NCBI GenBank assembly: GCA_964429855.1
Contig: CAYSDM010000001.1
Coordinates: 106,240-170,239, forward strand
Origin: an uncultured Chthonomonadaceae bacterium
Lineage (GTDB): Bacteria; Armatimonadota; Chthonomonadetes; Chthonomonadales; CAJBBX01
Length of the DNA stretch: 64,000 nucleotides
Reading direction: 5' to 3'
Made by a program: the position numbers and the translations under genes. Of this stretch, positions 31,623 to 59,205 are shown piece by piece. The notes under the pieces were generated by a model. It was given only the letters and a program-made list of their open reading frames with translations. It made no database searches and had not been told where the DNA came from. Position 1 is the first letter of the stretch. Each line of letters starts with the position of its first letter.

Positions 31623-31628
31623 GTGTCT

Positions 31629-31657
31629 ATCATAGCACGCGAGCAAGGGATTGGCAA
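31629..31657 (-). promoter_or_regulatory. Predicted sigma70-type promoter in leaderless configuration for paralog A
   Basis: The complement reads cTTGCCAa - 17 nt - (gTGc)TATGAT - agacac - ATG(31622). No Shine-Dalgarno. The architecture is identical upstream of paralog B. Confidence 0.55.
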
Positions 31658-31783
31658 GTGGAAAATCGCTCGGTCTGCATGGCTTTTCGCGCCTGTTATT
31701 CTCCCGGCAGGGATGTGCGAAACCCGGCGCGTATCTTTAGTCGGGCTGATTCAATCAGCTACTTTCGTCAGGGAAAGCGTTGC

Positions 31784-44466: not shown

Positions 44467-45666
44467 CTATCGCGCCGGGGAGGCAGGCAGATCGTGGAGG
44501 AGAATGCGGTATGTCCAGAGCCAGAGGAAGTCCGGGGGAGGCGTCTCGAACGAATCGGCGACCGACAGCGCCAGCCGTAACCGCCTTTCATCGGTGACCC
44601 ATCCCCGCGCATCTCTGCCGAGTGCGGCGTTATGGTTGCGGCTCCATCCGGTTGTCTCCGCGCCGATGGTCGCCAGCACGCGCCAGGTTCCGCGACCGGC
44701 GCGCAGATCGTCCGCCATGATCTCCGCCACCTGAACATGGGAGGAGATAAAACCGGGAAATCGGCTGTCTGTGTGAAGCTCTCCCTCTTGCGTCATGTAG
44801 AAGCGTTTGCGAGAGGGGGAGTAGGCGAGGGAGATATTGCGGAGATAGCGGATCGGACTCCCCGCAGCGGTTGTCAGACCCGCGGAAGGCACTTGTATCG
44901 GCGGGCTGAGGCGCGGTCCGGCGTCCATATCGGATAGATCCGCCGTCACCATCTCCTGCCCCTTCGTCTCCTCCCCGCGTGTGTAGCACAGGAGAACCTT
45001 TCCGGCTTCATCCAGCGAGACGGCGGCAGGCTGTCCAACGCCCCAGTAGCGATAGACAGGCCAGCCGTTCAACTCGCCGATCTTGCCGCCGTCGGGGCAA
45101 TTGGTGTAGCGGATGATCGGCTTCGGGTACCGGGTCCAGGGACCCTCCAGACGGTTGGCGAAGGCGACTCCCACCTGATTATGCGTGCTGTTCTCCGCAT
45201 CGCATCCCAGGTAGAAGAGCGCGTAGCGCCATGTCTTGCCCTGAAAGCGGAAGCATCCCGCCAGCGCCTCCGGGTCGCAGATATGGCGGCTGTCCCAGTC
45301 GGCACGATTCCTGCCGGGTTCCAGCGCGACCTTCTCTTCTCCCCAGACCCATCGTGATCCCGTTCTGGTCGCAATGCGCAGGCAGAGGTAGTCGGTCACC
45401 TCTCCGGGCTTGCGGTTGGCGCAGTAGAACAGGAAGCGCCGTTGTCCACTCTCCTCTTCGATCAGACAGGGCGCATAGGTATATGTGCGTTCGCGTGGTT
45501 GAAAAGCCGGCTCCATGCGCGGGACCACCGCCTGATGGGGAGGACGTGGCAAAGAATGCCGTCGCGATAGTCCTGTCGGCAGCAGGCAGAGAAGCCCCGC
45601 CGACCAGAACAGCGCAGGCAGGGGGAGACGAGATCGCCGACGCTGCCTTCGCCTGCCCCGTGCCAT
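44467..45666 (-). CDS. Beta-propeller glycosidase-like protein (GH43/GH117/GH130-clan-like), family unassigned
   Basis: Start at ATG 45666, one nt after the upstream stop (TAAgATG). Arg-rich N-terminus plus a hydrophobic stretch. Patterns WDSRHICDPEAL and NQVGVAFANRLEGPW are typical of five-bladed propeller glycosidases. Confidence 0.65.
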   Translation of the reverse strand: MARGRRRQRRRSRLPLPALFWSAGLLCLLPTGLSRRHSLPRPPHQAVVPRMEPAFQPRERTYTYAPCLIEEESGQRRFLFYCANRKPGEVTDYLCLRIATRTGSRWVWGEEKVALEPGRNRADWDSRHICDPEALAGCFRFQGKTWRYALFYLGCDAENSTHNQVGVAFANRLEGPWTRYPKPIIRYTNCPDGGKIGELNGWPVYRYWGVGQPAAVSLDEAGKVLLCYTRGEETKGQEMVTADLSDMDAGPRLSPPIQVPSAGLTTAAGSPIRYLRNISLAYSPSRKRFYMTQEGELHTDSRFPGFISSHVQVAEIMADDLRAGRGTWRVLATIGAETTGWSRNHNAALGRDARGWVTDERRLRLALSVADSFETPPPDFLWLWTYRILLHDLPASPAR

Positions 45667-45667
45667 C

Positions 45668-46735
45668 TTACGATCGCTGTCCGTAACGCCACGCCTCATC
45701 ATACATGGCAAGGATGTTCTCTATCGGCGTATTGGGCTGAAGGTTGTGGCAAGGAGCCACAATATAACCTGTGCCGTCGTCTGCCAGAGTATCTATGCTG
45801 GCGCGCACCTCTGCACGCACCTCTTCCGGCGTTCCGAAAGGCAGAATGCTCTGGTTCTCGATGCCGCCGTGAAAGCAGATACGGTCTCCGAACTCCCGCT
45901 TCAGTTCCGCCCGATCCATGCCCGGACAGTTCCACTGGATCGGATTGAGGATATCTATTCCCATCTCGATCAGACGTGGCAGGAAGACCCGGCAGCTTCC
46001 GTCATCATGGTGGAAGACCTTGATGCCAAATGCATGGCACAGGTCTATGAAGCGCCGGTGATGCTGTGCATAGAATGTGTCGTAGATCTTCGGGCTGATG
46101 AGCGGACCGGTCTGGCTCCCCAGGTCATCGGTTACCTGCGCCACGTCAATCAAGCCGTCACACGCCTCGAAGGCGCAGCGGTGATGCTCATAGAAAAAGT
46201 CGCTGATACGACGTAGAATCTCATGCGTAAAGTCGGGATCGTCATACGGGTCCATCAACGAGCGTTCCAGACCGCGCAGGAGGTTGTGAAAGTAGAAGGG
46301 AGCCATGTAGCCGAATGTGACCAGATGCGTTTTGCGTCCCTCTTGCGCCTGAGCGCGCATAGAGGAGTAGTCGAACCAGTCTGCGCGTGGCCAGCAGTAA
46401 CGGTCCAGATCGTCTATGGTTTTCGCCTCCGCCAGCGGATAGAAGACCTGCTCATCGTAGACGCCGTCCGCGTAGGGAGTGCGCCGCATCACCATGCCCC
46501 AGTAGTTCGCGCTCTCTCCCGGACCGACGGCGGGCGGCGCGGGACCGCAGTAGTCTGGTGCGATCGCGCGCATCCCGTCAATGTGCAGCGCCGCCATGAT
46601 ATCAGTTCCATCGCCGAAGTGGGCGCGCAGCTTCTCCCAGACCTCGCCAGTCGCCCAGATGTCGGTCGGAATACGATCTACCGGCTTGCGTTCGATGGCG
46701 GCGAACATTCGCTCCCGTGAATTCATCGCCTCCAT
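45668..46735 (-). CDS. Uroporphyrinogen decarboxylase (URO-D) superfamily protein
   Basis: MNSRERMFAAIERKPVDRIP.. N-terminus, ..DDLGSQTGPLISP..Y, HHDDGSCR..L..L.E.GIDILNPIQ, and a URO-D/MtaA-like C-terminus. ATG 46735 overlaps the upstream stop as TGATG. Confidence 0.8.
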   Translation of the reverse strand: MEAMNSRERMFAAIERKPVDRIPTDIWATGEVWEKLRAHFGDGTDIMAALHIDGMRAIAPDYCGPAPPAVGPGESANYWGMVMRRTPYADGVYDEQVFYPLAEAKTIDDLDRYCWPRADWFDYSSMRAQAQEGRKTHLVTFGYMAPFYFHNLLRGLERSLMDPYDDPDFTHEILRRISDFFYEHHRCAFEACDGLIDVAQVTDDLGSQTGPLISPKIYDTFYAQHHRRFIDLCHAFGIKVFHHDDGSCRVFLPRLIEMGIDILNPIQWNCPGMDRAELKREFGDRICFHGGIENQSILPFGTPEEVRAEVRASIDTLADDGTGYIVAPCHNLQPNTPIENILAMYDEAWRYGQRS

Positions 46736-47964
46736 CACTGCGCCTCGATCAGATCGCGCGTCATTTCGACCCATTTTCGCAGACGGGGACGGTCGCCGTT
46801 AATCCGGTAGACATCGCGGAAGATGATCTCCAGATTACATCCATGAAACGCCTCCAGCGTCTCGGCGATGTCCTGCCGCAGTGCGCTCCAATCGGGCGAG
46901 TCGCCGGAGATGGGCGCGGGGCGCGGCTTGCGCGAAAAGACGACGCTCTGTCCCGCCATCTCCGCCATCTTCCGCATGTCGCACCAGGGAGAGATAGAGA
47001 CGGCGCGAATGTGGGGGATCGCCTCGATGATTCGCGTCCAGCGATCATGCACCGGCTCGCAGCAGCCGTAGTAGATCAGCCCGAATCTTGCGCTGACCTC
47101 CGCCATATAGGGAAGGAAGAATTCGCCGAACATCCGGGGCGAGATGCATACGGTCTCCTGCGACTCCATCCAGAGCCACAGGTCTTTCAACCGCGCTACT
47201 CCGGGAGATGGAGGCGGCAGCGCGGTGGTATAGCCGGGGCTTCCTGAGCCGACGAATGTCCAGAGGTTGTTCGATCCGAGCAGCCCCTCGCGCTCCATCC
47301 AGTCGAACATCGCCAGACGGTCATCGCGCAGAAATGCCATGATCCGATGGATCGCCTTCGGTTCATCATAGAGCCAGGTCAGCAGACGATCATTGCCGAT
47401 CAGTTTGTAAAGATCGCTCGTGAGTCCGGCATGAAGCGCGGTCGTTCCATGCAGGATGACCGGCAGAAGGTCACCGAATGCCTCTGTCAGACGCTCCACC
47501 TTTCGCTCTGTGGAGGGGCGATCCACCTTCCAGCTTCTGGGCTGAAGCCGGACAATGTCGGCGGGAGCGCGGATGGGATGATCGAAGGCGTATCCGACAT
47601 GCCCGCCCTGCATATCCACCGCGTGTGTGGCGCGGATTTCCACGCCGTAGCCGGTTCCGCTGATGTCCCATCCGACGCGCCAGCACGGTTCAAGAACGGT
47701 ATCATCGCCGATCTCTTCCGCCTGTCGGATCGTCGCGAGCATATTCCACTCCACGCTTCGGAAGAGCGGGTCTTCGCACTGAAGCTCCCTCTCCGACAGG
47801 TAGTCCTCCAGCGTCCAGGTCTCGAACAGCACCATCGGACGCTCGGCGCGCAGGTCTTTCAGCGCGGTCCACTGCCGTTTACGCTCCTGCATGACGGGCT
47901 GTTCCGCGATCTCTCTCCAGCGCGCTGCGAGCGCGCGTATGCGGCTGCGATCCTGTGGATTCAT
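46735..47964 (-). CDS. Hypothetical protein, weakly URO-D/MtaA-like TIM-barrel C-terminal half
   Basis: 409-aa ORF with coding-like composition. The C-terminal YYGCCEPVHDRW..IPHIRAVSISPWCD pattern resembles the metal/substrate-site region of this superfamily. Tentative. Confidence 0.7.
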   Translation of the reverse strand: MNPQDRSRIRALAARWREIAEQPVMQERKRQWTALKDLRAERPMVLFETWTLEDYLSERELQCEDPLFRSVEWNMLATIRQAEEIGDDTVLEPCWRVGWDISGTGYGVEIRATHAVDMQGGHVGYAFDHPIRAPADIVRLQPRSWKVDRPSTERKVERLTEAFGDLLPVILHGTTALHAGLTSDLYKLIGNDRLLTWLYDEPKAIHRIMAFLRDDRLAMFDWMEREGLLGSNNLWTFVGSGSPGYTTALPPPSPGVARLKDLWLWMESQETVCISPRMFGEFFLPYMAEVSARFGLIYYGCCEPVHDRWTRIIEAIPHIRAVSISPWCDMRKMAEMAGQSVVFSRKPRPAPISGDSPDWSALRQDIAETLEAFHGCNLEIIFRDVYRINGDRPRLRKWVEMTRDLIEAQ

Positions 47965-47982
47965 CTTCTCATCTCTTGTCCG

Positions 47983-48738
47983 TTACATTCCCGCCTGCGT
48001 GATCCTTCCGCCCGTAACCGGAAGGTATGCGCCGGTAACATAGGAAGCCAGGTCGCTCAGGAAGAAGACGCAGCCGTTTCCAATCTCTTCCGCGCTGCCA
48101 TGACGCCGGAGCGGAATGGTTTTCGCGAAGTTACGCGATCCCTCCGATTCGGTGTTAACCTTCTCATCCGCCATCCAGCCGGGAGCCACCATATTGACGG
48201 TGATATTCTCCGGTCCGAGTTCGCAAGCCAGCGAGCGCGACAACCCCACCATCGCCCCCTTGCCCGCCATATAGACCGACCAGCCGGAAGGAGCAAGGTT
48301 CCACAGTTCCGTCACGATGTTCACGACCCGACCGCCGCCCTGCTTGCCGAACACGGGGCGCGCTGCGTTGATGGTATTGACGACCGCCTTGCAGCCGAAG
48401 TCGAAAGAGTTGCTGTAGTCCGCCCAGGTCGCCTCCGTCAGCGTGCCGCTCTGACGACCGGCAATCGCGTTATTCACCACGCCGTCCAGACGCCCGAATG
48501 TCTCCACAACGGCGCTAATCATGGCGGTGACCGCGTCCGGATCGCGGACATCCGCGCCGAAAGCCTGCGCCTCTCCACCGGCGGCGACGATCTCCGCAAC
48601 CACCGCTTCCGCCTTCTCTTTGCTGGCGGAGTAGTTGACGGCAACGGTCGCTCCCTGACGCGCCAGAACGCGCGAAATCGCCGCTCCGATGCCCCTTCCT
48701 CCGCCAGTCACCAGAACTACTTTTCCTGTCAACAACAT
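47983..48738 (-). CDS. SDR-family oxidoreductase (FabG-like)
   Basis: Start at ATG 48738 after GAGGGAG. TGGGRGIG, NNAI, YMAGKGA (Y-x3-K), and YVTGAYLPVTGG tail. Confidence 0.9.
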   Translation of the reverse strand: MLLTGKVVLVTGGGRGIGAAISRVLARQGATVAVNYSASKEKAEAVVAEIVAAGGEAQAFGADVRDPDAVTAMISAVVETFGRLDGVVNNAIAGRQSGTLTEATWADYSNSFDFGCKAVVNTINAARPVFGKQGGGRVVNIVTELWNLAPSGWSVYMAGKGAMVGLSRSLACELGPENITVNMVAPGWMADEKVNTESEGSRNFAKTIPLRRHGSAEEIGNGCVFFLSDLASYVTGAYLPVTGGRITQAGM

Positions 48739-48829
48739 GATCGCTCCCTCTCTTTCCGAAAGATCATTCCCTTTCAAGATGGCTGTTTACTAAGCATTCG
48801 GTCTTCGGCAGAGGAACCCCTTTTTCAAA

Positions 48830-50251
48830 CTACGGGGAGTGCGCTCGCAGCTTCGCGGGCAGCTCTTCCAGTGTAATAACCCGATCCTGAGAGAAGATTC
48901 GCTTCAGTTCCGACGCAGACATCTTTCGCGGTCCGAGATCGCCGACCCAGGGCAGGAAGAACGACCAGCGAACCCCGAAACGAAGCATCTTTTCGATATC
49001 CGGCACGCCTCCGAACTCGGTCAGCGCGAGCAGTTTCCTGCCGTTGAGAGTCTGCTGCAGCGATTCCCAGGTTCCGCTCAACGGATCGCCTGGATCACCT
49101 GGGTAGGAGTCCATGCCGATAATGTCTACCAGATCGTCGCCGGGGTACCACTCCGACGGAAAACCGGTATAGACCCAGATCAGGTTGTGCAGTCCATGAT
49201 AGCGCGTCAGGCGGTCGAACATCAGCCTCCAGAGCTTGCGGAAAGGTTCCGATCCCTTCGCTCCCCACCAGAACCAGCGCCCGTCCGCCTCATGGAGCGG
49301 ACGCCAGAGAACCGGGATGTCGGCGTTCGCCAGCTTGCGAAGCTGTGCGGCAATCGCGTCAATATCGCGCAGAATCAGCCGGTAGTCCTCGGATCTCGGA
49401 TCGGCGAGAGCGCGCTGCACGTCGAACGTGGTGGCGTTGGTGTAGAACCCTTTGTACCATCGCGCATCTATCGTCTGTCCGCGAGAGTCGGTATAGGTCT
49501 TATCCCGCAAGCCGGAGGGCGCGTTCCAGTGCCACATCAGCGTGAGAATGTGACCGGCGCGGGCGCGGCGGATAAACCGCTCGGTGAGTCCTTCGGGGTT
49601 TGCGCCATAGGCTATGCGCGAGGGGGAGTAGTCCATAAAGTCCCCGCCGAAGATCGCGGGCGCTCTTCCTGTTGTCCGTAGAATGTAGTCCGAATCCTCT
49701 TCGCCGTACTGCCCGGAGAGCGTCTTGTCACCATAGAGGTCTACCAGATAGCGCATCAGTGCGCGCGTCTTCGGCGTTGCCTGGCGATCCGCCAGTGTGA
49801 GGGGAGGTTTCTGTGGAGGAGGCGCAGGGCGGGCAGGCGTCAGTTCCAGATAGTCAATATCGAAGTAGCCCCATCCTTTCTCCAGAACCAGAGTATTTTC
49901 GCCCGCTTTCAACTCCACCTTCCCGGCAAAGACGGAGGCGAATGCCGATGCGGTTGGCGGGAACATCCCGGAAATGCGGCCGCCATTAACGTTCAGATCG
50001 TAGCCCTTTTCGCCATGCGGCGCGCTGTAGCCGACCTTCACCGCGTAGAGTCCCGCCTTTGCCCTGACCGTGAAGGTGATCCGATCTCCCTCCTTATCAA
50101 AGCCGGTCACATAGCCTTTGCCGGAGAAGCCGGGGCGCGCGTTTTCGGCGGCGACGCCGACAAGCTGCGCCTCTTCCGCCTCCAGCCGAATGCTCTCCTG
50201 CGGGATGGGAAGCGCGGAAAGGGCGGTTATCAGCAGAACCTGAGGATACAT
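48830..50251 (-). CDS. GH26 beta-mannanase with N-terminal CBM6/CBM35-like domain
   Basis: RPLHEADGRWFWWG is the GH26 signature. The N-terminal segment AEEAQLVG...GYVTGF.. is a carbohydrate-binding-module pattern. AAGGAG SD upstream. Confidence 0.9.
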   Translation of the reverse strand: MYPQVLLITALSALPIPQESIRLEAEEAQLVGVAAENARPGFSGKGYVTGFDKEGDRITFTVRAKAGLYAVKVGYSAPHGEKGYDLNVNGGRISGMFPPTASAFASVFAGKVELKAGENTLVLEKGWGYFDIDYLELTPARPAPPPQKPPLTLADRQATPKTRALMRYLVDLYGDKTLSGQYGEEDSDYILRTTGRAPAIFGGDFMDYSPSRIAYGANPEGLTERFIRRARAGHILTLMWHWNAPSGLRDKTYTDSRGQTIDARWYKGFYTNATTFDVQRALADPRSEDYRLILRDIDAIAAQLRKLANADIPVLWRPLHEADGRWFWWGAKGSEPFRKLWRLMFDRLTRYHGLHNLIWVYTGFPSEWYPGDDLVDIIGMDSYPGDPGDPLSGTWESLQQTLNGRKLLALTEFGGVPDIEKMLRFGVRWSFFLPWVGDLGPRKMSASELKRIFSQDRVITLEELPAKLRAHSP

Positions 50252-50292
50252 CCGATCTCCTTTCGCTTCGGGAGTAAGCCTCTTCCGGAGCC

Positions 50293-51405
50293 TCAGTAGT
50301 CTCGATGCTGCTCATAGACCTCCAGTGCATAGCGGTAGCTGTCGTAGCTCACGTTCGGGGTGACGGAGTGATCGGTTCCGAAGACGTACCGGGCATTCCG
50401 CGCCTTCATGCCCTCGACGATCTCCGAAACACCCCGGCGGATCGTCTCACGATCGTTGCTCTCCAGAATCCGCACATCCAGCCCGCCGATGAAAGCCAGA
50501 TCACTGCCGTACTGGTCGGCAAAGGCAAACAGGTCGCAGCCCGCTTTCACCTCCATCGGATTGAGCGCGTCGAATCCGGCTTCAAGAATAAGCGGAAGGG
50601 CTTTCGTGATCCCGCCGCAGGAGTGCAGCACCACCGGCAGATCGTATTCGTGGAAGAAGGAGACCAGTTCCGTAAAATAGGGGAAGATAAGCTGTTTCAG
50701 AAGCCGGGGCGAGGCGAATAAGCCATTCCGATATCCCAGGTCTTCATAGACCCAGATTCCGTCTGGCAGTCCCGCCTGCTCAAAGAGGGCGCGGTAGTGT
50801 GCCTTAAAGAAATCGGTATAGACGCGGTTATAGTCGTGAATCCATCCCGGATCGAGCGCGAGGCTCTCATACATGGTGATGTCGCCCATGCTCTGGCGCA
50901 TCGTCTCAAAGATGAATAGATGCCCGTAGAATGTCCAGCGGTTATCGGCGCGCCCGGCTTCCAGCGCTCGCGTATGGGCGGCGATGTCCATGCGCTGCGG
51001 GTCTACCGAGAGCAGATAGCTTCGATAGTCCCGCTCCCAGATTTCGCGGCTGGTCATCAGGAAGTCAATATGCTCCGGCGTGCCGGATTTATGTTTCCAG
51101 TATTTGAGCGCAGCGCCGGCCCCATTGCGCACCACCTGCCACTCGTCCGTCTCTTCCAGCACCTCACGATAGCCGCGCAGGGGATTCACATCGAACCATC
51201 CTCCGCAGGAACGCATATCGTAGCCGAAGTAGATCGCGGGATCGGCGGGAATAGGAGCTTTCGCATCGGAGGGGGTGCCGTCGGCAGTCGGGTAGCCCTG
51301 ATCCACCCACAGGCGAGGCGTCTCCGGCCAGAAGTGGTCGAACAGCCCGACCCGATCCGGGCTGCCTTTGCGTAGTAGCTGATGAATCCGCGTTTGTGAG
51401 TCCAT
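50293..51405 (-). CDS. Uroporphyrinogen decarboxylase (URO-D) superfamily protein
   Basis: IHQLLRKGSPDRVG.., YEDLGYRNGLF.SP, VLHSCGGITKALPLILEAGFDALNPME, and DHSV tail. GGGAGGA SD upstream. Confidence 0.8.
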   Translation of the reverse strand: MDSQTRIHQLLRKGSPDRVGLFDHFWPETPRLWVDQGYPTADGTPSDAKAPIPADPAIYFGYDMRSCGGWFDVNPLRGYREVLEETDEWQVVRNGAGAALKYWKHKSGTPEHIDFLMTSREIWERDYRSYLLSVDPQRMDIAAHTRALEAGRADNRWTFYGHLFIFETMRQSMGDITMYESLALDPGWIHDYNRVYTDFFKAHYRALFEQAGLPDGIWVYEDLGYRNGLFASPRLLKQLIFPYFTELVSFFHEYDLPVVLHSCGGITKALPLILEAGFDALNPMEVKAGCDLFAFADQYGSDLAFIGGLDVRILESNDRETIRRGVSEIVEGMKARNARYVFGTDHSVTPNVSYDSYRYALEVYEQHRDY

Positions 51406-51514
51406 CCTGTCCTCCCGACTGGAATCGCGGAGGCGCTCCTGCTGGAAACGCCGACAGGAGCGCCTGAAGATGCGTAACCGCCTGATACTATTCTACTGAC
51501 GGCATGCGTCCTAC

Positions 51515-51850
51515 CTATTCCGCCATGCCCACGGCGAGCGCCGTCTGTCTGGTACTGGAAAGGCAGGAGGTCTGCCGGGCTTTCTTGCGTGCCTGCGCAA
51601 AGACCGGAAGGAGGATCACTTCCAGAATCGCGATCATGGCGATAGCGACGAGCAGTTCAATCCGCGTACAACCTCTCTGAAGCGAGCGGATCAGGGCGTT
51701 GGGGGTGAAGTGCAGTTCGGAGGCAGCCTGCAAGACGCGGTCACAGGTCTGAGAAGCGGGGTACTTCTGGCCGTTGAGGATATTGGAGACGGTTCCAACA
51801 GAGACACCCGCACGGCAGACTATATCGCGTATGGCAGGGCGGCGTCGCAC
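51515..51850 (-). CDS. LacI-type HTH headpiece fused to a type IV pilin-like (prepilin class III signal) N-terminal helix; short, possibly truncated
   Basis: The GTG 51850 start (GAAGGA SD 9 nt upstream) gives (M)RRRPAIRDIVCRAGVSVGTVSNILNG..ASELHFTPNALIRSLQRG-CTRIELLVAIAMIAILEVILLPVFAQARKKARQTSCLS..., ending about 25 aa after the helix. The upstream part of track ORF 51515..52189 runs through two tRNA genes, so I reject it. Confidence 0.6.
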   Translation of the reverse strand: MRRRPAIRDIVCRAGVSVGTVSNILNGQKYPASQTCDRVLQAASELHFTPNALIRSLQRGCTRIELLVAIAMIAILEVILLPVFAQARKKARQTSCLSSTRQTALAVGMAE

Positions 51851-51879
51851 TACGGGGATTCCTTCAAGTTTTTTTATAC

Positions 51880-51931
51880 TAGATTCAACGACTGCTGTTC
51901 TGAATCTACCTTCCTTCAATCTCAATGTCAA
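51880..51931 (-). promoter_or_regulatory. Predicted promoter (TTGACA - 17 nt - TAGATT) with overlapping 8-bp inverted repeat
   Basis: On the complement, TTGACA is at 51931..51926 and TAGATT at 51908..51903. The inverted repeat TAGATTCA (51880..51887) - N13 - TGAATCTA (51901..51908) overlaps the -10. Confidence 0.4.
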
Positions 51932-52056
51932 GAGTAATTGTGAATTTATTAACGAGTGTTTTCTAGGACTTTCCTGCAGGTGCGTGTTGAAAGAGAGGAC
52001 AATGCTACAGAAGGGAAAGCAGTTTCCGGAAGCAGGCGGCGTGAGGAAGAAAGGAG

Positions 52057-52128
52057 AGCGGGAGACGGGTTTCGAACCCGCGACCTCCTCCTTGGCAAGG
52101 AGGCGCTCTACCACTGAGCTACTCCCGC
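52057..52128 (-). tRNA. tRNA-Gly (anticodon GCC)
   Basis: The complement reads GCGGGAGTAGCTCAGTGGTAGAGCGCCTCCTTGCCAAGGAGGAGGTCGCGGGTTCGAAACCCGTCTCCCGCT. It folds into a cloverleaf by hand with anticodon loop TTGCCAA. CCA is not encoded. Confidence 0.93.
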
Positions 52129-52147
52129 ATCGCTCTGTACGGCGCGG

Positions 52148-52231
52148 TGGTGGGCGAGAGGAGAGTCGAACTCCTACGCCTTTCGGCACTAGTTCCTAAG
52201 ACTAGCGTGTCTGCCATTCCACCACTCGCCC
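52148..52231 (-). tRNA. tRNA-Leu (anticodon UAG), long variable arm, CCA encoded
   Basis: The complement reads GGGCGAGTGGTGGAATGGCAGACACGCTAGTCTTAGGAACTAGTGCCGAAAGGCGTAGGAGTTCGACTCTCCTCTCGCCCACCA, with anticodon loop CTTAGGA. Confidence 0.93.
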
Positions 52232-52293
52232 GATGGGATACGGCACGGATTTTCAGACAGCGAAGAGAATTATATCACGCCTTCCCTCGCTTG

Positions 52294-55200
52294 TCAAGGC
52301 TTTATTCGCACCGGAATCAGAGCGCGAAACAGCCTCCCGTTCTCCATACGCGCATTCCAGATGTCCGTCTGCTCGTCGGTATCGTAGGTCCAGTGCAGGA
52401 AACCGACGAATCCCCGCTCCAGCGCGCGCCAGATATGCTTGGTCAGCAGATCTGCTGCCTGATCCGCCGACGGAACGGCTCCTTTGAAGACCCCGCACTC
52501 TCCCATCAAAATCGGTTTGCCAGCGCGCCGGCAGGCTTCGCGAACCGCCTCCCATTCGACGCTCTTCAGATCACGCTCCAGACTCGCCTCGTCGGTCGAA
52601 TAGAGATGAATGTCCAGATAGGACAGACGGGTCTCCGCCAGCGCCAGCGGGCGCGCCGGAAAGCGCGGATCGGGACTCTTATCCTGTGACAGGCGTCCCG
52701 GACCGGAGCGACCGACGGCGGCGAAGGTGAAGACATTCGCGCTGACCATCATGTCCGGGTCTACGCGGTGAACCGCCTCGACACAGGCATCTGCCAGCGC
52801 CTGCGTTCCGGCGTCCGCGAGTCGCTGCAGGTCATCGTCGGAGGTCCGCGAGTATGTTTTCCCCTGAAAGACGACCGATCCGCGCCGGGGGGAGAAGGGA
52901 GGTTTCGTCGCCATCAGATGGGTCTCATTGTCCAGTTCACAGGCGAAGACGGAGGAGAGCAGTCCCCGATCCTGCTTCGCAATGGCGGCGGCGAAGTCCG
53001 CCATATACCGCGCTTTGGCGGCAATGTATCCCGGATGAAGCAGGGCGAGGTTTTCGCCCTCCACCCCGGAAGGCGCGGGCTGATTCGGGCGATAGGGAGG
53101 CGTGTCGGGCAGGTAGCACATGGCGAAGATCACATAGAGGCGGTGCCGTCGGGCGCGAGCGAGAAAGTCACAGACGTTCGCCATGTAGGCGGGGGACAGC
53201 TCCTTCGCCTCTTTCGTCGCGACGCTGCCCGCTCCTGGCATCGGGTCAATAAAGACCCGGACGATGTTGAAGCCATTTGCGGCGATGTCGGAGAGAGCGG
53301 GTTCGGCGCGCTCCGGACGGTAGCTGTTCGGGTTGAAGGTGTCGTGCCACAGATAGCCTTCGTTGCGGACCCGGATATAGTTGAAACCGCGCGGTCGGAA
53401 GACCTTTCCGGTCTTTGCTTCGATGAATTGACCGTTACGCGCCGCGATACGCGGCAGGGGAGAGGTTTTTTGGGGGGACGGCTTAATCACAACCATGATC
53501 CCGTCTCTCGCCGGAACCTCCACCGTAACAGGGAACCTGCGTCCATCGGCGGAGGGCAGCGCAACGGTTCCGCCGGGCGTCGTCTGCAGCAGGCTCCACC
53601 GTTGAGCCTTTCCCATTCCGTACCGGTCAGCGTCCAGCAGGCAGGAGACGCGGTGCGGACGGGTGTCGGCGTTGGCGAGGAGCAGCGCGAAGCTTCCGTC
53701 CCTTCCTCTCCATAGCGCGGCATGGACGGCTTTAAGGGTCACCTCGCGATCGCCCTTCCAGGTGTTCCAGCGTCCGGTGAGATCGGGCAGATCGTTCTGC
53801 GGGCGTACGACGGCGAGCAGTTCGCCGTAGACAAGATAGTCGCCGGCGATAGCCCGCAGTCGCGCCAGGCGCCCCTGAAACTCCAGCTTGGCGGCGTGCT
53901 CCGGCGCGACGATCTCCGCGCCTTCCCATCCAAGCTGCGTTCCCCAGACGAAATCGCGCGCCTGACAGAGAGCAAACGCCGTATCGCCTCCCGCCAGGGC
54001 GCGGTTGCTGGCGAAATAGAGCGTGTAGCCGCTGTAGACCGCCGTCGTCATCGGAATCTCATGCTGTTCGCGGGGAGTCCAGGTGAGGAAGGCGTCCACA
54101 TTGTCCATATAGGGTTCGGCGTCGTTCTCGGTGGTCAGACCGACCTGCCGCTGCGCCGAAACCGCCCATCGCTTGATGGGCGTGAGCATCTGGCGGTAGC
54201 CGTCTACCCACCAACGCCCGGAACCCAGTGTGTGCCGGTGCGCGGGATCGAAGCAGAGACGCGGGGGCGCGGAGGCGATCTGATCGAGATAGACGGCATT
54301 GACTCCGCACTCCTCGCCCAACCGCCGGACGATCTGCGCCACGCGCTCCTGCCAGAAGGCCTGGGTGGGGCACATCACCGCCAGTTTCGCGCCGGAGCCA
54401 TACTCTTCGATCAACGGATTGCCCTGCGGGTCTTTCGCGCTGAAGGGTTTCGCCAGCGGAAACTCCCGGTTGGCGATGTCCCAGAGTCGCGCATTGATAT
54501 AGGGCATCACCACCACGCCCTCGCGCTTCAGTTCGGCCACGCCTTCCGCAAATCCGGGCTTAACGGGAAAGTAGGCGGGGTAGTCGGTATCGAAGGGAAT
54601 CTGATGCCAGTTATACCAGTGTACGCCGACCGGCGCGCCGACCGCCTGCGCGAACTTACGCACCACCGGAACCACCTGCTCCCGCGTACCCTGCCCCACG
54701 ATCCAGGCAGCGACTTTTTTCATCGCCTCCGGAACGTCGCTCCTTTTTGCCAGCGATCCCTTTTTCGTCCAGGGAGCCGACTTCAACGCCCAGGCGCGAT
54801 ACCGCTTGCAGCCGTCCATCCAGTCGCCGCAATAGGCCCCCAGCGCAAAGGCATAGGGAGCGTTCCAGCCGCTGCCCGGCTTTCCCATGTTCTCCGCCCA
54901 GGTGTTCACATGGAACTCGCCGCCCGGTGTCAGCGAAAACTGTTTGTGGCGCGCGCCGGGATCATGCGCCGCCAGATAGAGACCGCAATCGCCCTCCAGC
55001 AGCAGCATGAACTGCATCGGCATGTTGTGCGAGGGGTACTCTCCGGCAATGGTCTGAACCGCGCCCGCGTGGAGTTCGCCCCAGTTGCCGCGTCCGATGG
55101 CAATGTCCGCCTTGCCCGTCTCCGAGACCGGCGCGATCACCGGAAAATGCACGCCCCATAGCCCGGTCTGTCGGCTTCGGTTGTTCACCCACAGCCGTAG

Positions 55201-55679: not shown

Positions 55680-57512
55680 ATGCGATTGCATATGCTTCTT
55701 GCCGCCTGCCTGCTGTTCGGAGCGGCTTCCGCATTGTCGGCGCAGAACGCCGATCCCGGCATGTCCGACTATCTTGTGCAGGTACGCCGCCTGCTCCCTA
55801 CACCGGGAGTAACCTGGTTCGACCCCTCCGACCTGAGCCGTATCAGTGTGGGAGGCGTGCCGGAGTTCGCGCGATCCTCCGTCGTCCCGGTTACGGGGCA
55901 GCCGTTTCAGAAGGCGGTGCAGGTGGAGGTGCATAAGCAGGGCGAAAACCCCTACAGCTCCCAACTGCAGATCCCGGCAAACACCCGCCCGATCAAGAAG
56001 GGCGACGTGATCCTCTTTACATTCCACGTCCGCTGCCTGCAATCCCGCCATGAATCCGGCGAGGGAATCTGGGCAATGTATCTACAGAACAATGGTCCGC
56101 CCTGGACGACCTACTACTCTGCACAGGGCAGCGCTGGGAGAACCTGGCGTCGGTGCTACTACTACACGGTCGCCGAGCGGGACTTTGCGCCCAATGAGGT
56201 CGGTCTAACGTTTCATCTCTCTCAGATCGCTCAGACGCTGGAGTTCGGCGGGCTGATCGTGCTGAATCTGGGTCCGCTGGCGGATACCTCGCGCCTGCCT
56301 GTCACGCGCTTGACCTATCGGGGGAGCGAGCCGAACGCGCCCTGGCGGAAAGCGGCGGCGGAGCGAATCGAGAAGTACAGAAAGGGGACCCTGTCGGTGC
56401 AGGTGACCGACCGACGCGGCAGACCGCTCTCCGGCGCAGTCGTTTCGGTGCGTATGAAACGCCATGCCTACGAGTTTGGTTCCTTTGCCGAACAGCCGAT
56501 TCTCGCCGACACGCCGGACGGCGCGAAGTACCGGGAGTGGTTCCGGAAGCTCTACAACAAGGCGACCTGCCCCATGTATAACGCCGACTGGGGATGGGAG
56601 AGTCCGAAGTCGCGGCAGGACTATACAGGCATCGCCGAATGGCTACAGAAGAACCGGATTCCCACCAAAGCCCATGTGCTGATCTATCCCGGATGGCAGT
56701 TCATGCCGACTCGCTGGAAGGCTCTGGAAAAAGATCCGCCTGCGCTGCGCGAGTCCATGTACGCGCATATCCGCGAGATCATGGAAGCCACCGCCCGGTT
56801 CCGTTTTGTCGGATGGGACATCATCAATGAGACCCGCGACCTGCGCGACCTGCCTGCCATCTTTGGCAGCGACGAGATATACGCGGACATCTACAGACAG
56901 GCGCGCGCGGCGAACTCTCACTCCCGGTTCTTCATCAATGAGAACACCATTCTGACCAGCGGCGGGCAGACGGAGCTTCAGCAGGATATCTATGAGCGGA
57001 TGATCCGGTATCTTCTGGATCAGGGAGCGGCGGTGGAAGCCATCGGGATGCAGGGGCATATGGGCGAATCGCTGACGCCTCCGGAGCGTGTGGCGCAGAT
57101 ACTCGACCGTTTTGCCCGTTTCAAGCTGCCCATTCAGATCACGGAGTGGGACCTGCCGACCCGCGATGAGATCACGCAGGCGGCTTACACCCGCGACTTC
57201 ATGACCGCCTTTTTCAGTCATCCCGCCACCACCGGCTTCACCATGTGGGGATTCTGGGAGGGACATATGTGGCAGCCTCTCGGCGCGATGATTCGTAAAG
57301 ACTGGAGCCTCAAGCCCAACGGAAAAGCCTACCTCGATCTGGTCTATCGGGAGTGGTGGACGAATGCGGACGGAAAAACGGATCGAAAGGGCGCCTGCAG
57401 CGTTCGCGGCTTTCTGGGCGACTATTCGGTAACGGTGACCTATCGCGGAAAGAGCAGAACCGTGCCGGTTTCGCTGAAGCGTCCCGGTACGCGGGTAACG
57501 GTCCAGTTATAG
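55680..57512 (+). CDS. GH10 endo-beta-1,4-xylanase with N-terminal CBM4_9/CBM22-like domain
   Basis: Signal peptide. GWDIINE (acid/base region) and IQITEWD (nucleophile region). GAGAGGA SD upstream. Confidence 0.9.
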   Translation: MRLHMLLAACLLFGAASALSAQNADPGMSDYLVQVRRLLPTPGVTWFDPSDLSRISVGGVPEFARSSVVPVTGQPFQKAVQVEVHKQGENPYSSQLQIPANTRPIKKGDVILFTFHVRCLQSRHESGEGIWAMYLQNNGPPWTTYYSAQGSAGRTWRRCYYYTVAERDFAPNEVGLTFHLSQIAQTLEFGGLIVLNLGPLADTSRLPVTRLTYRGSEPNAPWRKAAAERIEKYRKGTLSVQVTDRRGRPLSGAVVSVRMKRHAYEFGSFAEQPILADTPDGAKYREWFRKLYNKATCPMYNADWGWESPKSRQDYTGIAEWLQKNRIPTKAHVLIYPGWQFMPTRWKALEKDPPALRESMYAHIREIMEATARFRFVGWDIINETRDLRDLPAIFGSDEIYADIYRQARAANSHSRFFINENTILTSGGQTELQQDIYERMIRYLLDQGAAVEAIGMQGHMGESLTPPERVAQILDRFARFKLPIQITEWDLPTRDEITQAAYTRDFMTAFFSHPATTGFTMWGFWEGHMWQPLGAMIRKDWSLKPNGKAYLDLVYREWWTNADGKTDRKGACSVRGFLGDYSVTVTYRGKSRTVPVSLKRPGTRVTVQL

Positions 57513-58124
57513 GGGGCGGTCCCGGCGGGTTTCGTACCAGTCGTACAGAGCGAAAAGAATCAGGCGGAGATTTCCCTGATGCCGCTGAAACAGGTCATTC
57601 AGAAGAGCGTCAGAGGGCGATTCCGTCTGCCAGTCGGTCAATAGATGATCCACCACCCGTCGCGTCGTTTCCGGGGTGATTTCGGCGCGCCAGAGAGTGG
57701 GCAGCCCCGCATCGCGGTGCGTGGCAACCAGCAAGCCGACTTCGCGGCGTCGGCAGGCGGCGCGCAGGAGAACGCGCCGCCACTGCGAGAGCGACTCCCA
57801 TTCGTCTGCAAACAGGCAGGAGGCGTCCGCGAAGCAGGGAGCGGAAGGAGAGCGGAACGCGCAGACGCGCCAACCGAGCGCGTCTGCTGTCATCGCCAGA
57901 TGGTGCAAGAGCGTGGATTTTCCAGAACCGTGCGGACCGAGAATCTGTCCCTGCATTCCGCTGTCGGCAAAGGTCTGCAGCAGCGATCCCAGGCTCTCAC
58001 CTTCCGGCAGGAAGAAGGGGATCGCTCCCGGCTTCACGCGCTCCGAACAAAACGGATTACTTGGCGCGCCGTGAAAGCGCAGGCTTCGCCCCGGTGCGCC
58101 GACAGTCAATACTGCTTTGTCCAA
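57507..58124 (-). CDS. Small P-loop NTPase (AAA/Hda-like), hypothetical
   Basis: Walker A GPHGSGKST and Walker B-like CLFADEWE. The track start is TTG 58124. An alternative TTG 58109 forms a TTGA overlap with the upstream stop. Start uncertain. Confidence 0.7.
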   Translation of the reverse strand: MDKAVLTVGAPGRSLRFHGAPSNPFCSERVKPGAIPFFLPEGESLGSLLQTFADSGMQGQILGPHGSGKSTLLHHLAMTADALGWRVCAFRSPSAPCFADASCLFADEWESLSQWRRVLLRAACRRREVGLLVATHRDAGLPTLWRAEITPETTRRVVDHLLTDWQTESPSDALLNDLFQRHQGNLRLILFALYDWYETRRDRPL

Positions 58125-58504
58125 TTCGCCTCCTGCCCGGACACCAGAAAGAAAGGCTCTTCGTAGGTCAGGTCCCGTCCGCGCTTCATATCGGCTGTCA
58201 CACGCACGCGCCAGTGGATCTTTAACAGAAAGCCGTGATAGGAGAGTGGGAGCGGAGGGAGTATAACCGAGAAAGGGAAGTCCGGACCGCCGCGCAGATC
58301 AAGCTCATCGGAATAGGCGAACCCCTCATCCCGGTCGCCTTTTCCTTCGGTGAACCAGAGAACCTGCACCGCAACCGACTTTAGCTCATCCCGGCGCATT
58401 CCGTGCAGCATAATCGTTCCCGCCAGAGTCTCTCCGGGACGGTACTCTCGCCTATCATCATGCAGGCGCACCTGAATCAGAGGGATGGCCTCATCGTACT
58501 GCAT
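58106..58504 (-). CDS. Soluble beta-sandwich protein with arrestin-N/Spo0M-like sequence pattern, hypothetical
   Basis: ATG 58504 overlaps the upstream stop (TGATG). YRPGETLAGTIML.., SVAVQVLWFTEGKGD.., LPPLPLSYHGFLLKIHWRVRVTAD. Confidence 0.7.
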   Translation of the reverse strand: MQYDEAIPLIQVRLHDDRREYRPGETLAGTIMLHGMRRDELKSVAVQVLWFTEGKGDRDEGFAYSDELDLRGGPDFPFSVILPPLPLSYHGFLLKIHWRVRVTADMKRGRDLTYEEPFFLVSGQEANWTKQY

Positions 58505-59205
58505 CAGAATCTCCTCTGCGAATCGGGCGGAATCACGCACAAAATGAAGTCGAAAGTGAAGTCGGGCCAGCGCGCCACCTCTCCCTTCACGTGAACCTTC
58601 CAGACGATCTTGTTATTGCGCGATTCGAAGCTGTGCATGGCATCCGCCGGAATGGCCAGGTCGAAATGCTTCTCCAGCGGCCGGGCGATGGTGGTGGTGA
58701 CCGGTCCGGTCGTGATGATCTGTTGATCCAGCAGGGCGTTCGACTCGTTGTAGGTATCTGTGCCGCGCCGATAGGTGATCTTCTCCTCGCACACCAGATT
58801 CACGAGGAAGTTATTCAACGGAAGCGCGCCGTGCTGCGCGATATAGGCGCGTACCCGCTCTCCCGGAACCAGAATCGTCTTCTCGATCTCCAGAATGGTC
58901 TCCCGCACCCGGATCGCGAGCAGGATGCTGCGCAGGAGAAAAACGAGCAAGCCGATGCCGACCAGTTCGAAGGGGATCAGGAACAGGGTCAGAAAGATGT
59001 CCCCCCGTCCATTCAGCCATCCGCTCACCATCTCCAGGAAAAAGAGGCTGACGATTCCGTTCCAGAAGAGACATAAGAGGAGCAGGCAGCCGATCTCCGC
59101 CGCGCGCGACTGACCGGCTTTCAAGCGCGCAGCATGGATTCGTCCCGGCTCCGCCTTGATCGTCGGCAGCAGGAGATTGGATGGCGTAATAGTTGCGGGT
59201 GCCAT
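58504..59205 (-). CDS. Membrane protein: two TM helices + C-terminal arrestin-like beta-sandwich (paralogous to the downstream gene)
   Basis: TM segments CLLLLCLFWNGIVSLFFL and IFLTLFLIPFELVGIGLLVFLL. The C-terminal LVPGERVRAYI.., IPADAMHSFESRNNKIVWKVHVKGE matches the pattern of 58106..58504. Confidence 0.75.
   Translation of the reverse strand: MAPATITPSNLLLPTIKAEPGRIHAARLKAGQSRAAEIGCLLLLCLFWNGIVSLFFLEMVSGWLNGRGDIFLTLFLIPFELVGIGLLVFLLRSILLAIRVRETILEIEKTILVPGERVRAYIAQHGALPLNNFLVNLVCEEKITYRRGTDTYNESNALLDQQIITTGPVTTTIARPLEKHFDLAIPADAMHSFESRNNKIVWKVHVKGEVARWPDFTFDFILCVIPPDSQRRF

Follow-up and report, generated by a model that had tools for sequence, protein, structure and literature searches.

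A LacI-type DNA-binding headpiece joined in frame to a degenerate pilin-like segment beside a tRNA gene pair: probably a lineage-specific chimeric relic

The window analysed in this study, that is, the whole stretch of DNA, comprises 64,000 nucleotides (64 kb). A chimeric open reading frame (ORF) of 111 codons plus stop lies on its minus strand, running from a GTG at 51850 to a TAG at 51515 and encoding the protein MRRRPAIRDIV...SLQRG|CTRIELLV...AVGMAE, and a Shine-Dalgarno-like GAAGGA, read directly from the sequence, is located 9 nt 5' of the GTG (51860..51865, minus strand). The annotated product has 111 aa at NCBI and 138 aa at JGI, where the TTG start falls inside the promoter. A mechanically called ORF of 224 aa overlaps the tRNAs and was rejected as not credible as a gene. 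The ORF has a GC content of 0.60 and a GC3 of 0.705, similar to the adjacent genes, and its two halves (GC3 0.68 and 0.73, compared with about 0.72 in the neighbours) are both native-like. An Rfam scan of 51250-52350 identified tRNA-Gly(GCC) (52056-52128) and tRNA-Leu(TAG) (52148-52231), both on the minus strand and 5' of the ORF, and nothing beyond these two; a perfect promoter, TTGACA-17-TATAAT (52297..52269, minus strand), drives both tRNAs. The position just downstream of two tRNA genes, reported in the first-pass annotation, is thus correct (52056..52231). Downstream of the ORF and on the same strand are a URO-D-like gene (50293-51405), which begins 109 nt past the ORF stop, and a GH26+CBM35 mannanase gene (48830-50251). 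The ORF had been described as heading an operon with these two genes. Their order and strand agree with this description, but a strong GC-rich hairpin (51431..51465, minus strand; 14 predicted pairs, consensus energy -30.8 kcal/mol) that is conserved in relatives lies between the ORF stop and the URO-D gene, and because it intervenes the operon assignment is uncertain. The hairpin lacks a following T-run and was not among the intrinsic terminators called.

A sigma-70-like promoter, TTGACA-17-TAGATT, with 10 of 12 matches was located upstream of the ORF (51903..51931, minus strand), the promoter scan of the region yielding 2 sites where 0.4 were expected. A perfect inverted repeat, TAGATTCA-N13-TGAATCTA, with 8-bp arms (51880..51908) overlaps the -10 hexamer and the transcript start and spans -10 to about +16, so that both the promoter and the repeat over its -10 hexamer are present as first described. 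Judged from its position, the repeat is a candidate operator and autoregulation through it is plausible. Its arms are 21 bp apart from centre to centre, a half-site spacing unlike that of classical LacI-family operators, and no second copy was found in the 64-kb window at up to 3 mismatches.

The N-terminal half of the protein carries a LacI-type helix-turn-helix (HTH) at residues 7-51 (51698..51832, minus strand). Profile search against Pfam assigned it to PF00356 with 42.1 bits and an E-value of 7.6e-11 (cut-off 27), in agreement with the canonical LacI/PurR HTH initially proposed, and the PurR, RbsR and GalS models of NCBIfam matched with E-values of about 1e-10 to 1e-8, covering the headpiece alone. 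The LacI HTHs of the closest relatives in the same subfamily score 52-68 bits, i.e. 10-25 bits above the 42 of the ORF. Comparison with ordinary LacI proteins revealed a hinge-helix segment, PNALIRSLQRG, at residues 50-60 (51671..51703, minus strand), and a helix was predicted by AlphaFold2 over the same residues with low confidence. The hinge string ELHFTPNALIRSLQRG is identical in P0047, the closest ordinary LacI protein, and near-identical in P0002, P0003, P0033, L032 and L033, and the segment PNALIRSLQRG matches P0047, L032 and L033 exactly; in all six proteins a Peripla_BP-type core starts at RG (or KG), in most cases as (K/R/Q)T.T(I/V)GV. The fusion junction of the ORF is situated at, or just past, R59-G60. 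The nearest LacI sequences (P0047, P0002, P0003, L032 and L033) belong to a subfamily not yet characterised, whose hinge reads '...ELHFTPNALIRSLQRG(K/R)T.T(I/V)GV' and to which the headpiece is 57-61% identical, and its last 16 residues are those of P0047. The gene for P0047 adjoins GH28 and GntR genes, a context that is silent on the donor.

The ORF shares the N-terminal PF00356 HTH, the hinge helix and an operator-like inverted repeat at its own promoter with LacI/GalR repressors such as E. coli LacI and PurR. Unlike them, it contains no Peripla_BP_1/3 core for dimerisation and effector binding (Pfam), the chain running into a hydrophobic pilin-type helix and ending at residue 111, and therefore it has neither a dimer interface nor an effector pocket. 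Two further short predicted proteins, P0005 (136 aa) and P0062 (134 aa), also have LacI-type HTHs without a core, but they differ from the ORF in having two tandem HTHs and no hydrophobic helix, and they may be fragments.

An artefact was also considered, either a chimeric assembly join or an ordinary LacI gene with a frameshift. In its favour, the DNA probably comes from a metagenome-assembled genome, and the junction falls within a short motif, RG.T, common to both parent families. We consider such an artefact extremely unlikely. No Peripla_BP-coding sequence was found 3' of the ORF in any frame, and the next gene follows at the short distance given above. L001 and L030 carry the ORF without a single DNA difference, and the identical protein (P0001) is present in NCBI and Logan. 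The Logan contig, from the single run SRR12686701 and a different assembler, has identical DNA, and a JGI contig from another sample (3300043177) differs by 3 mismatches in 8,417 nt, with 0 within the ORF. The recovery of the same DNA in other assemblies argues against an assembly artefact, and the ORF is not an ordinary LacI gene broken up by sequencing error.

The C-terminal half, residues 60-109 (51524..51673, minus strand), is homologous to the N-termini of DUF1559/prepilin-type proteins. A phmmer search of 1.84 billion representatives matched residues ~55-109 to many such N-termini with 60-73% identity and E-values of about 1e-11; sampled matches carry PF07963 together with PF07596, residues 60-109 align to DUF1559-type N-termini without gaps, and the closest genome matches of this segment are Armatimonadota metagenome-assembled genomes. 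The segment places Gly at -1 (G60) and Glu at +5 (E65), followed by a hydrophobic helix, IELLVAIAMIAILEVILLPVF, at residues 64-84 (51599..51661, minus strand), which contains E65 and an extra Glu, E77. The mean Kyte-Doolittle hydropathy of this helix is 2.87 over 19 aa, compared with 3.24 in the family consensus. AlphaFold2, which was run without an alignment (pLDDT 59.7) and from which the secondary structure alone was taken, predicted a helix at 63-92 with low confidence. Homology to the DUF1559 N-terminal block GFTLIELLVVIAIIAILAAILFPVFAQAREKARQ.SCLSN.KQ is clear at the identity and E-value given above, yet eight near-invariant columns are substituted (F+1C, L+3R, V9A, I12M, A17E, A18V, F21L and N39S), all of them 96-100% invariant among 141 related N-termini. 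The Cys-Thr-Arg noticed earlier after the Gly was borne out by this alignment, +1 being Cys (Phe in 98% of the 141 relatives) and +3 being Arg (Leu in 99%). Searches of Pfam and NCBIfam with the ORF gave no match to PF07963 (N_methyl) or TIGR02532 even at E<=1, while a canonical relative scores 39 bits with N_methyl, and the full-length pilin models of NCBIfam were weak (best PRK10574, E-value 4.5e-6, with 26.8 bits where the cut-off is 138). Of the prepilin layout proposed to follow the HTH, the Gly at -1, the Glu at +5, the hydrophobic helix and the FAQAR-K-ARQ-SCLS continuation therefore stand, but the N_methyl profiles are not significant.

DUF1559 (PF07596, SBP_bac_10) prepilin-type proteins are found in Armatimonadota, Planctomycetota and relatives. 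They have in common with the ORF G(-1), T+2, I+4, E+5, the LLV.IA.IAIL core and PVFAQAR.KARQTSCLS, whereas their leader consists of a few basic residues and that of the ORF is a 59-aa DNA-binding domain; in contrast to them, F+1, L+3 and six more near-invariant residues are replaced in the ORF and N_methyl is undetected. The stop comes two codons past the conserved 'M', the first residue of the MY.QDYDE block and the expected start of the DUF1559 domain, and the ~27 residues that follow the helix contain no Pfam domain. No match to PF07596 (DUF1559) or HX9DG was found in the ORF by Pfam search; with its end at residue 111, the ORF is too short to include the DUF1559 domain and the C-terminal H-X9-DG motif. 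In the 40-nt tail after the stop, no reading frame bears a convincing resemblance to MY.QDYDE. We would guess that the stop codon was derived from a TAT-to-TAG change.

The first-pass annotation regarded the ORF as a possible degenerate or truncated member of a family, and the changed columns and the early stop agree with degeneration and truncation. Such a family would consist of full-length proteins with an HTH, a prepilin N-terminus and a DUF1559 domain, of which the ORF would be a truncated copy, in the same genome or phylum. The pilin part clearly comes from the DUF1559 family, and DUF1559 genes are plentiful in Armatimonadota, the likely phylum. When the 111-aa protein was used as a phmmer query against the 1.84 billion representatives, the self match scored 226 bits and the next, a protein with two pilin segments, 70 bits. 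Because phmmer sums the scores of matches with two matching stretches (P0004 and P0005 rank directly below the self match), a protein with both a LacI HTH and a pilin segment should reach at least 75 bits, and no such protein was present at or above that score among the cluster representatives. The 90% identity cluster had no member besides this sequence with a different start. A word-indexed homologue search with the same query returned only the self match and two fragmentary sequences of the ordinary LacI type from very small contigs, a result uninformative on architecture.

A scan of GTDB species-representative genomes, a set that does not include the source genome, gave no match spanning both halves. 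The locus L023 had appeared to be such a match and was rejected, because its frame is that of a pilin gene extended too far upstream; the remaining pilin motifs in the fetched loci, which count against a wider family, are preceded either by short leaders or by upstream frames that are junk. The pattern GVSxxTVS...PN...(5-15 aa)...GFTLIE yielded 0 matches in metagenomes, and since the same pattern adapted to CTRIE recovers the window gene, its design is sound. A metagenome scan with the hinge peptide FTPNALIRSLQRG recovered two LacI genes, both of the ordinary kind with PBP cores, and no others. It missed the window's own JGI contig, so the collection lacks some JGI samples and its negative results carry less weight than they seem to. 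With a synthetic probe joining a GntR consensus to a consensus pilin, the best 120 of 8,000 candidates were all PF07963+PF07596 proteins. Fusions of HTH domains (GntR/LacI) to pseudopilin-DUF1559 proteins in Armatimonadota would favour a wider family, but neither these 120 probe candidates nor searches of the literature gave any. With the locus in relatives described below included, other genes of this architecture, which the first-pass annotation had anticipated, were found neither among the 1.84 billion representatives nor in the GTDB scan nor in the two metagenome scans. As no other such gene was found, there is no family of which the ORF could be a degenerate member, and its origin as a truncated copy of one is very unlikely. 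Two of the four outcomes that had been named beforehand as contrary to the original proposal, non-significant PF07963/TIGR02532 profiles and the absence of this architecture elsewhere, are what the searches returned.

That proposal held the ORF to be a proteolysis-gated one-component regulator, in which a prepilin peptidase would cut after G60 at the cytoplasmic face and free a 60-aa soluble headpiece repressor. The Gly at -1, the Glu at +5 and the pilin-derived helix speak for it, and the arrangement resembles PilA processing by PilD (Peptidase A24), where Gly at -1, Glu at +5, a ~20-residue hydrophobic stretch and a cytoplasm-facing site also occur. The Gly at -1 is reportedly critical for cleavage, and substitutions at +1 are said to be often tolerated. 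Prepilin peptidases cleave at the cytoplasmic membrane face, and known prepilin leaders are short and basic, that of PilA having 6 aa (PMC3584216). In contrast to PilA, the ORF has a folded leader of 59 aa (60 aa when counted to the cut), for which no precedent was found, a Cys in place of Phe at +1, and no pilin globular domain. The replacement of the conserved F and L at +1 and +3 and the non-significant N_methyl and TIGR02532 searches also argue against cleavage, as does the outcome of the LacI-type searches and the GntR-plus-pilin probe, neither of which produced a protein with an HTH in the leader. No prepilin peptidase (Peptidase_A24) or type IV filament genes were found among the window ORFs scanned, a further point against cleavage. 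A free monomeric LacI headpiece binds DNA poorly, which would limit a released repressor. Given a single unconserved ORF with Cys at +1 and no significant N_methyl profile, the proteolysis-gated reading was not upheld and is in our view most improbable, and slightly more so is the specific version in which a newborn functional gene yields, through a cut after G60, a soluble HTH that represses its own promoter. If it were true, prepilin-peptidase processing would act as a transcriptional switch, regulated proteolysis of a kind not described for this enzyme family.

The orthologous locus was compared in close relatives (L002-L006, L024 and L025), whose URO-D genes are 92% identical. These relatives have tRNA-Leu and tRNA-Gly, then URO-D after ~168 nt, and the same hairpin, which in them directly follows tRNA-Gly. 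A lineage-specific segment of ~495 bp in the window (51475..51969), in which an AT-rich promoter region with a GC content of 0.35 precedes the ORF and a tail of ~40 nt, is represented in the relatives by ~27 unrelated nt. No deletion scar was detected, the relatives' short spacer scoring against the 495-bp segment at the shuffled mean, and no flanking direct repeats suggestive of an att site or a target duplication were found around the segment. Either a gain in this lineage or a loss in the relatives may account for the difference. URO-D homologues at the next level of similarity (~70% identity; L026 and L028) lie in unrelated contexts and so do not polarise the change. The close relatives also have no GH26 gene, and an SDR gene directly follows their URO-D.

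The ORF might still function without cleavage, as a membrane-tethered mini-repressor whose pilin-derived helix serves as a plain signal-anchor; we regard this as possible but doubtful. In such a case two anchored headpieces might conceivably pair in the membrane, perhaps through E65 and E77, and, with no greater likelihood, the young, sensorless transmembrane regulator could possibly act on the inverted repeat at its own promoter and possibly on other sites. An intact promoter, Shine-Dalgarno sequence and start, an operator-like repeat reaching from -10 to about +16, an HTH above the Pfam threshold, and a sequence stable across the assemblies found are consistent with this reading. The hydrophobic helix is kept, the predicted secondary structure (AlphaFold2) suggests an HTH, a hinge and one long helix, and the substitution of the pilin-specific F+1 and L+3 with hydrophobicity largely retained would fit a change of role. 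Against it, the ORF is not conserved in the representatives, the GTDB scan or the metagenome scans and is absent at the sister-lineage locus, the HTH score is below that of relatives, the dimerisation and effector domains are absent, and the repeat has half-sites spaced unlike those of LacI-family operators and is single-copy in the window.

Predicted regulators that combine a DNA-binding domain with a transmembrane region are common. In the survey of Demey et al. (2023), which defines them operationally as one polypeptide with a DNA-binding domain and at least one transmembrane region, the single-pass class is the commonest (56%), and LacI is among the DNA-binding domains, with 467 predicted regulators that carry it listed in Table S1 (PMC10269533). 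The ORF has both parts by prediction only. The LacI entries inspected, however, are ordinary LacI+Peripla_BP_3 proteins with one predicted transmembrane segment (PMC10269533). ToxR, CadC, TcpP and BcrR-type regulators have a cytoplasmic DNA-binding domain and then a single membrane helix, and the ORF is predicted to be alike; unlike the ToxR/CadC type, it has no periplasmic sensor and only ~27 residues past the helix, it is unconserved in the genomes searched, and its predicted anchor derives from a pilin signal. If the tethered reading were true, the ORF would be the first example of a pilin-derived anchor fixing a LacI headpiece to the membrane, in a very young gene soon after its birth.

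We consider that the ORF is probably a lineage-specific chimeric relic of DNA rearrangement beside a tRNA gene, which may still be expressed. Its restriction to one lineage, its lack of pilin hallmarks and its truncation make a leftover of rearrangement the most likely explanation, rather than a novel type of regulator. An ordinary LacI-family gene would have supplied its 5' part, which comprises the promoter, the operator-like repeat, the HTH and the hinge helix. From the hinge 'RG' onward, the frame would continue into roughly the first 50 codons of a pseudopilin gene of the DUF1559 type, in which the processing site reads 'RG|FT'. Judging from the eight changed columns, the absence of an N_methyl match and the lowered HTH score, both halves appear to be under relaxed constraint, and the ORF, a relic or a very young gene at most, would have no conserved, selected function. 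Expression, if it occurs, would yield a single-pass membrane protein of 111 aa in N-in orientation, its LacI headpiece lying in the cytoplasm and tethered to the membrane by a degenerate pilin-type helix; having no dimerising, effector-binding core, it would probably bind DNA weakly and would not respond to sugars. Some features run counter to a relic: the promoter with 10 of 12 matches, the GAAGGA and the GTG look intact, the inverted repeat sits where an autoregulatory operator would sit, the frame of 111 codons is open, the HTH is above the Pfam cut-off and the helix is still strongly hydrophobic. A polar residue in a transmembrane helix, here the introduced Glu, could promote helix-helix association.

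A striking combination of domains in one ORF can thus be a by-product of rearrangement and calls for caution, and the quickest tests of such combinations are the same locus in sister genomes and the presence of the junction in other proteins in large collections. For the organism, the findings indicate that the tRNA pair adjoins a small hot spot of gene-content change in a glycan-degrading genome, probably of Armatimonadota.

The chimeric ORF was read on the minus strand as 111 codons, from a GTG at 51850 to a TAG at 51517-51515, and the NCBI gene call (P0001, 111 aa) is consistent with the position of the promoter. The start of the JGI gene call (138 aa) falls within the promoter, and a mechanical ORF of 224 aa, which overlaps the tRNAs, was rejected as a gene. 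The genes for tRNA-Leu (52148-52231) and tRNA-Gly (52056-52128), both on the minus strand, lie upstream of the ORF and are followed by an AT-rich stretch (51851-51969, GC 0.35), within which a sigma-70-like promoter (TTGACA-17-TAGATT, 51931..51903, minus strand) was recognized. A perfect inverted repeat, TAGATTCA-N13-TGAATCTA (51880-51908), overlaps the -10 hexamer, and a Shine-Dalgarno sequence (GAAGGA, 51865-51860, minus strand) precedes the GTG. A 9-nt sequence (TTGAAGGAA, minus strand) also recurs as an exact direct repeat at 51859-51867 and 51911-51919, 52 nt apart, with one copy in the spacer between the two promoter hexamers and the other at the ribosome-binding site of the ORF; it may reflect chance or a small duplication. 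The tRNA pair itself is directly preceded by a sigma-70 promoter that matches the consensus at 12/12 positions (TTGACA-17-TATAAT, 52269-52297, minus strand) and carries an upstream TG. As no terminator was predicted between the tRNA pair and the chimeric ORF, transcription starting at this strong promoter may read through into the ORF.

The chimeric ORF is not an assembly artefact, and misassembly was regarded as an exceedingly improbable source of it. A Logan contig (1.4 kb, from the single run SRR12686701) is identical in DNA across the whole overlap, and a JGI contig (36.8 kb, sample 3300043177) shows 3 differences over 8,417 positions, all outside the ORF. GC3 of the two halves is 0.68 and 0.73, compared with ~0.72 in neighbouring genes, and the URO-D gene starts 109 nt past the stop of the ORF.

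Residues 7-51 were covered by the LacI HTH model (42.1 bits, E 7.6e-11), and matches to the NCBIfam PurR, RbsR and GalS models were restricted to the headpiece. Its nearest relatives are ordinary LacI-family proteins of a single subfamily (P0047, P0002, P0003, P0033, L032 and L033), in which the headpiece ends in '...ELHFTPNALIRSLQRG' and continues through '(K/R)T.T(I/V)GV...' into the Peripla_BP core; the HTH scores 52-68 bits in these relatives versus 42 bits in the chimeric protein. LacI core sequence was absent from every frame downstream of the chimeric ORF, and with the core missing the protein cannot be counted as a complete LacI-family member. Tandem pairs of LacI-type HTH headpieces were observed in three proteins from the searches, P0005 (136 aa), P0062 (134 aa) and P0067 (402 aa), two without a core domain and one with it; these are possibly single-chain 'dimeric' headpieces, and we know of no description of such proteins.

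In the chimeric protein, 'RSLQRG', which also occurs in the LacI subfamily, is followed by 'CTRIELLVAIAMIAILEVILLPVFAQARKKARQTSCLSSTRQTALAVGM', a segment that aligned without gaps to many prepilin/DUF1559-type N-termini (60-73% identity, E ~1e-11) in a phmmer search of 1.84 billion cluster representatives. PF07963 and PF07596 domains were present in the sampled pilin-side matches, and the closest genome matches of the segment were Armatimonadota MAGs. The first-pass annotation had read these residues correctly, with a LacI headpiece in place of the short basic class III leader, Gly at -1 and Glu at +5. Against 141 related N-termini, a set of best search matches and hence biased towards the consensus, the segment carries a different residue in each of eight 96-100% invariant columns (F+1C, L+3R, V9A, I12M, A17E, A18V, F21L and N39S), and E29K is a further change. 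The N_methyl model did not report the chimeric protein, a canonical member scoring 39 bits, and the reading frame stops two codons past the conserved Met opening the DUF1559 block 'MY.QDYDE'. Lacking the DUF1559 domain, the protein is excluded from the DUF1559 proteins; the type IV pilin-like class does not fully accommodate it either, given its failure against the HMMs, a +1 residue other than Phe, a long leader and the absence of a globular domain. The hydrophobic stretch remains strongly hydrophobic (Kyte-Doolittle 2.87 over 19 residues versus 3.24 for the consensus), so membrane insertion of the product is still plausible. A low-confidence single-sequence AlphaFold2 model (pLDDT 59.7) agrees in secondary structure with the HTH and pilin-helix layout, with three HTH helices, a hinge helix (50-60), a long helix (63-92) and a disordered tail.

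Because the scores of two matching stretches are summed, as for P0004 and P0005, which rank directly below the query itself, any protein joining a LacI HTH to the pilin block should score at least ~75 bits and rank at the top. The query scored 226 bits and the next protein, with two pilin motifs, 70 bits; no protein of this architecture was found among the 150 matches listed from the 1.84 billion representatives searched. The 90% identity cluster of the chimeric protein contained solely the same sequence with a different start, and when one genome for each GTDB species was scanned the halves were matched separately, the lone 'both halves' case being false. A metagenome pattern (G-V-S-x-x-T-V-S, then P-N, then G-F-T-L-I-E within 5-15 residues) gave 0 matches in the JGI metagenome collection, from which the window's own JGI contig is absent; its design works, since a C-T-R-I-E version recovers the window gene. 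A second scan of that collection with the hinge peptide returned just two ordinary LacI genes. The existence of HTH-pseudopilin fusions was not supported by a synthetic GntR-plus-pilin probe, for which the best 120 of 8,000 candidates were all plain DUF1559 proteins. These searches of cluster representatives, GTDB genomes and the JGI collection gave no evidence of a family sharing the architecture, and a hidden full-length family appears very unlikely. The architecture proposed earlier is real, but it is unique, degenerate and truncated.

It had also been proposed that a prepilin peptidase releases the HTH, as a proteolytic switch. Gly(-1), the key determinant for prepilin peptidases, is kept, but +1 is Cys, no peptidase or filament genes lie within the window and a second example is absent from the searches, which leaves cleavage with very little probability. 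The leader would moreover be a folded domain of 59 residues, compared with 6 residues in PilA (PMC3584216). The switch is unsupported, and a peptidase-released HTH is very improbable.

A GC-rich hairpin (51431-51465, minus strand; 5941-5973 in L002 and ~2941-2973 in L024, both relatives' loci) is conserved just upstream of URO-D in the window and its relatives, with 14 predicted pairs and about -31 kcal/mol. It lies ~100 nt past tRNA-Gly in the relatives and between the chimeric ORF and URO-D in the window; in the window one U-G pair is changed to U-A, one C-G pair is changed to U-G and one pair is broken. Neither a T-run after the hairpin nor an Rfam match was found, and it could be a tRNA-operon terminator, a processing site or a URO-D leader structure. 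As the hairpin intervenes, the earlier claim that the ORF heads the URO-D operon is uncertain. The cluster at 44467-51405 (minus strand), kept in relatives, holds three URO-D-family paralogues (50293-51405; 46735-47964, a weak match; 45668-46774), an SDR gene (47983-48777) and a 414-aa ORF without annotation, and is surrounded by glycoside hydrolases (GH26, GH10, DUF6259/GH5); the role of URO-D-like proteins in this glycan-utilisation setting is not obvious. Elsewhere in the window, a beta-lactamase-family gene (31658-33235, plus strand) lies between the genes of two large paralogous DUF6785+DUF6784 proteins (29586-31646 and 33258-35267, minus strand, E ~1e-157 each). Three overlapping small ORFs at 57507-59205 (minus strand) adjoin a 3-keto-disaccharide-hydrolase gene, one with a weak STAND-NTPase-like and one with a weak arrestin-N/C match, both below Pfam cut-offs, and the third of 233 aa with hydrophobic stretches.

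The expression signals look intact, the inverted repeat sits in an operator-like position and the substitutions largely preserve hydrophobicity, all of which would suit the main rival reading, in which the product has taken on the role of a small repressor that is tethered to the membrane and acts at the repeat. This reading is unlikely, though less so than cleavage: there is no conservation whatsoever, the HTH is weakened, and the half-sites lie 21 bp apart, which is atypical of LacI-family operators. The protein resembles transmembrane transcription regulators at most, but without a sensor. Predicted proteins with DNA-binding and transmembrane domains are widespread and, in a published survey, include LacI domains, the LacI examples seen in its supplement being ordinary LacI+Peripla_BP_3 proteins (PMC10269533).

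URO-D proteins 92% identical to that of the window were found on several contigs (P0155-P0157). All these relatives share the order DUF6259/GH5 gene, in some a small AbiEi island, tRNA-Leu, tRNA-Gly and URO-D, the last only ~168 nt past tRNA-Gly. In the alignment, 51475-51969 of the window (~495 bp: the AT-rich promoter region, the chimeric ORF and a 40-nt tail) is replaced by ~27 nt with no detectable similarity to it. Gain and loss of the segment are indistinguishable, as more distant URO-D homologues lie in unrelated contexts. The GH26+CBM35 mannanase gene (48830-50251, minus strand), between URO-D and SDR, is restricted to the window's lineage; in all of the close relatives L002, L005, L006, L024 and L025 the SDR gene directly follows URO-D, and the 90% identity cluster of the mannanase has one member. 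Situated no more than 2 kb from the chimeric ORF, the mannanase gene is the second insertion specific to this lineage.

On balance, the chimeric ORF is probably a lineage-specific chimera that arose when DNA next to the two tRNA genes was rearranged. An autoregulated LacI-family gene would have contributed its 5' end and a DUF1559 pseudopilin gene its first part, the two meeting at a motif common to both families ('RG.T' in the LacI hinge, 'RG|FT' at the pilin processing site), and the frame would later have been shortened. The ORF is inferred to lack a conserved function; its expression would yield a single-pass protein of N-in topology that keeps the headpiece in the cytoplasm and has no dimerising or effector-binding core. 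That indels concentrate around the tRNAs is further indicated by a ~2.3-kb island (3478-5636 in L002, L003 and L004) between the DUF6259/GH5 gene and tRNA-Leu, with an AbiEi_2-family gene and two unannotated ORFs, which is missing in the window and L024. As the chimeric ORF and the GH26+CBM35 gene are both lineage-restricted, this neighbourhood is a hot spot of gene-content change.
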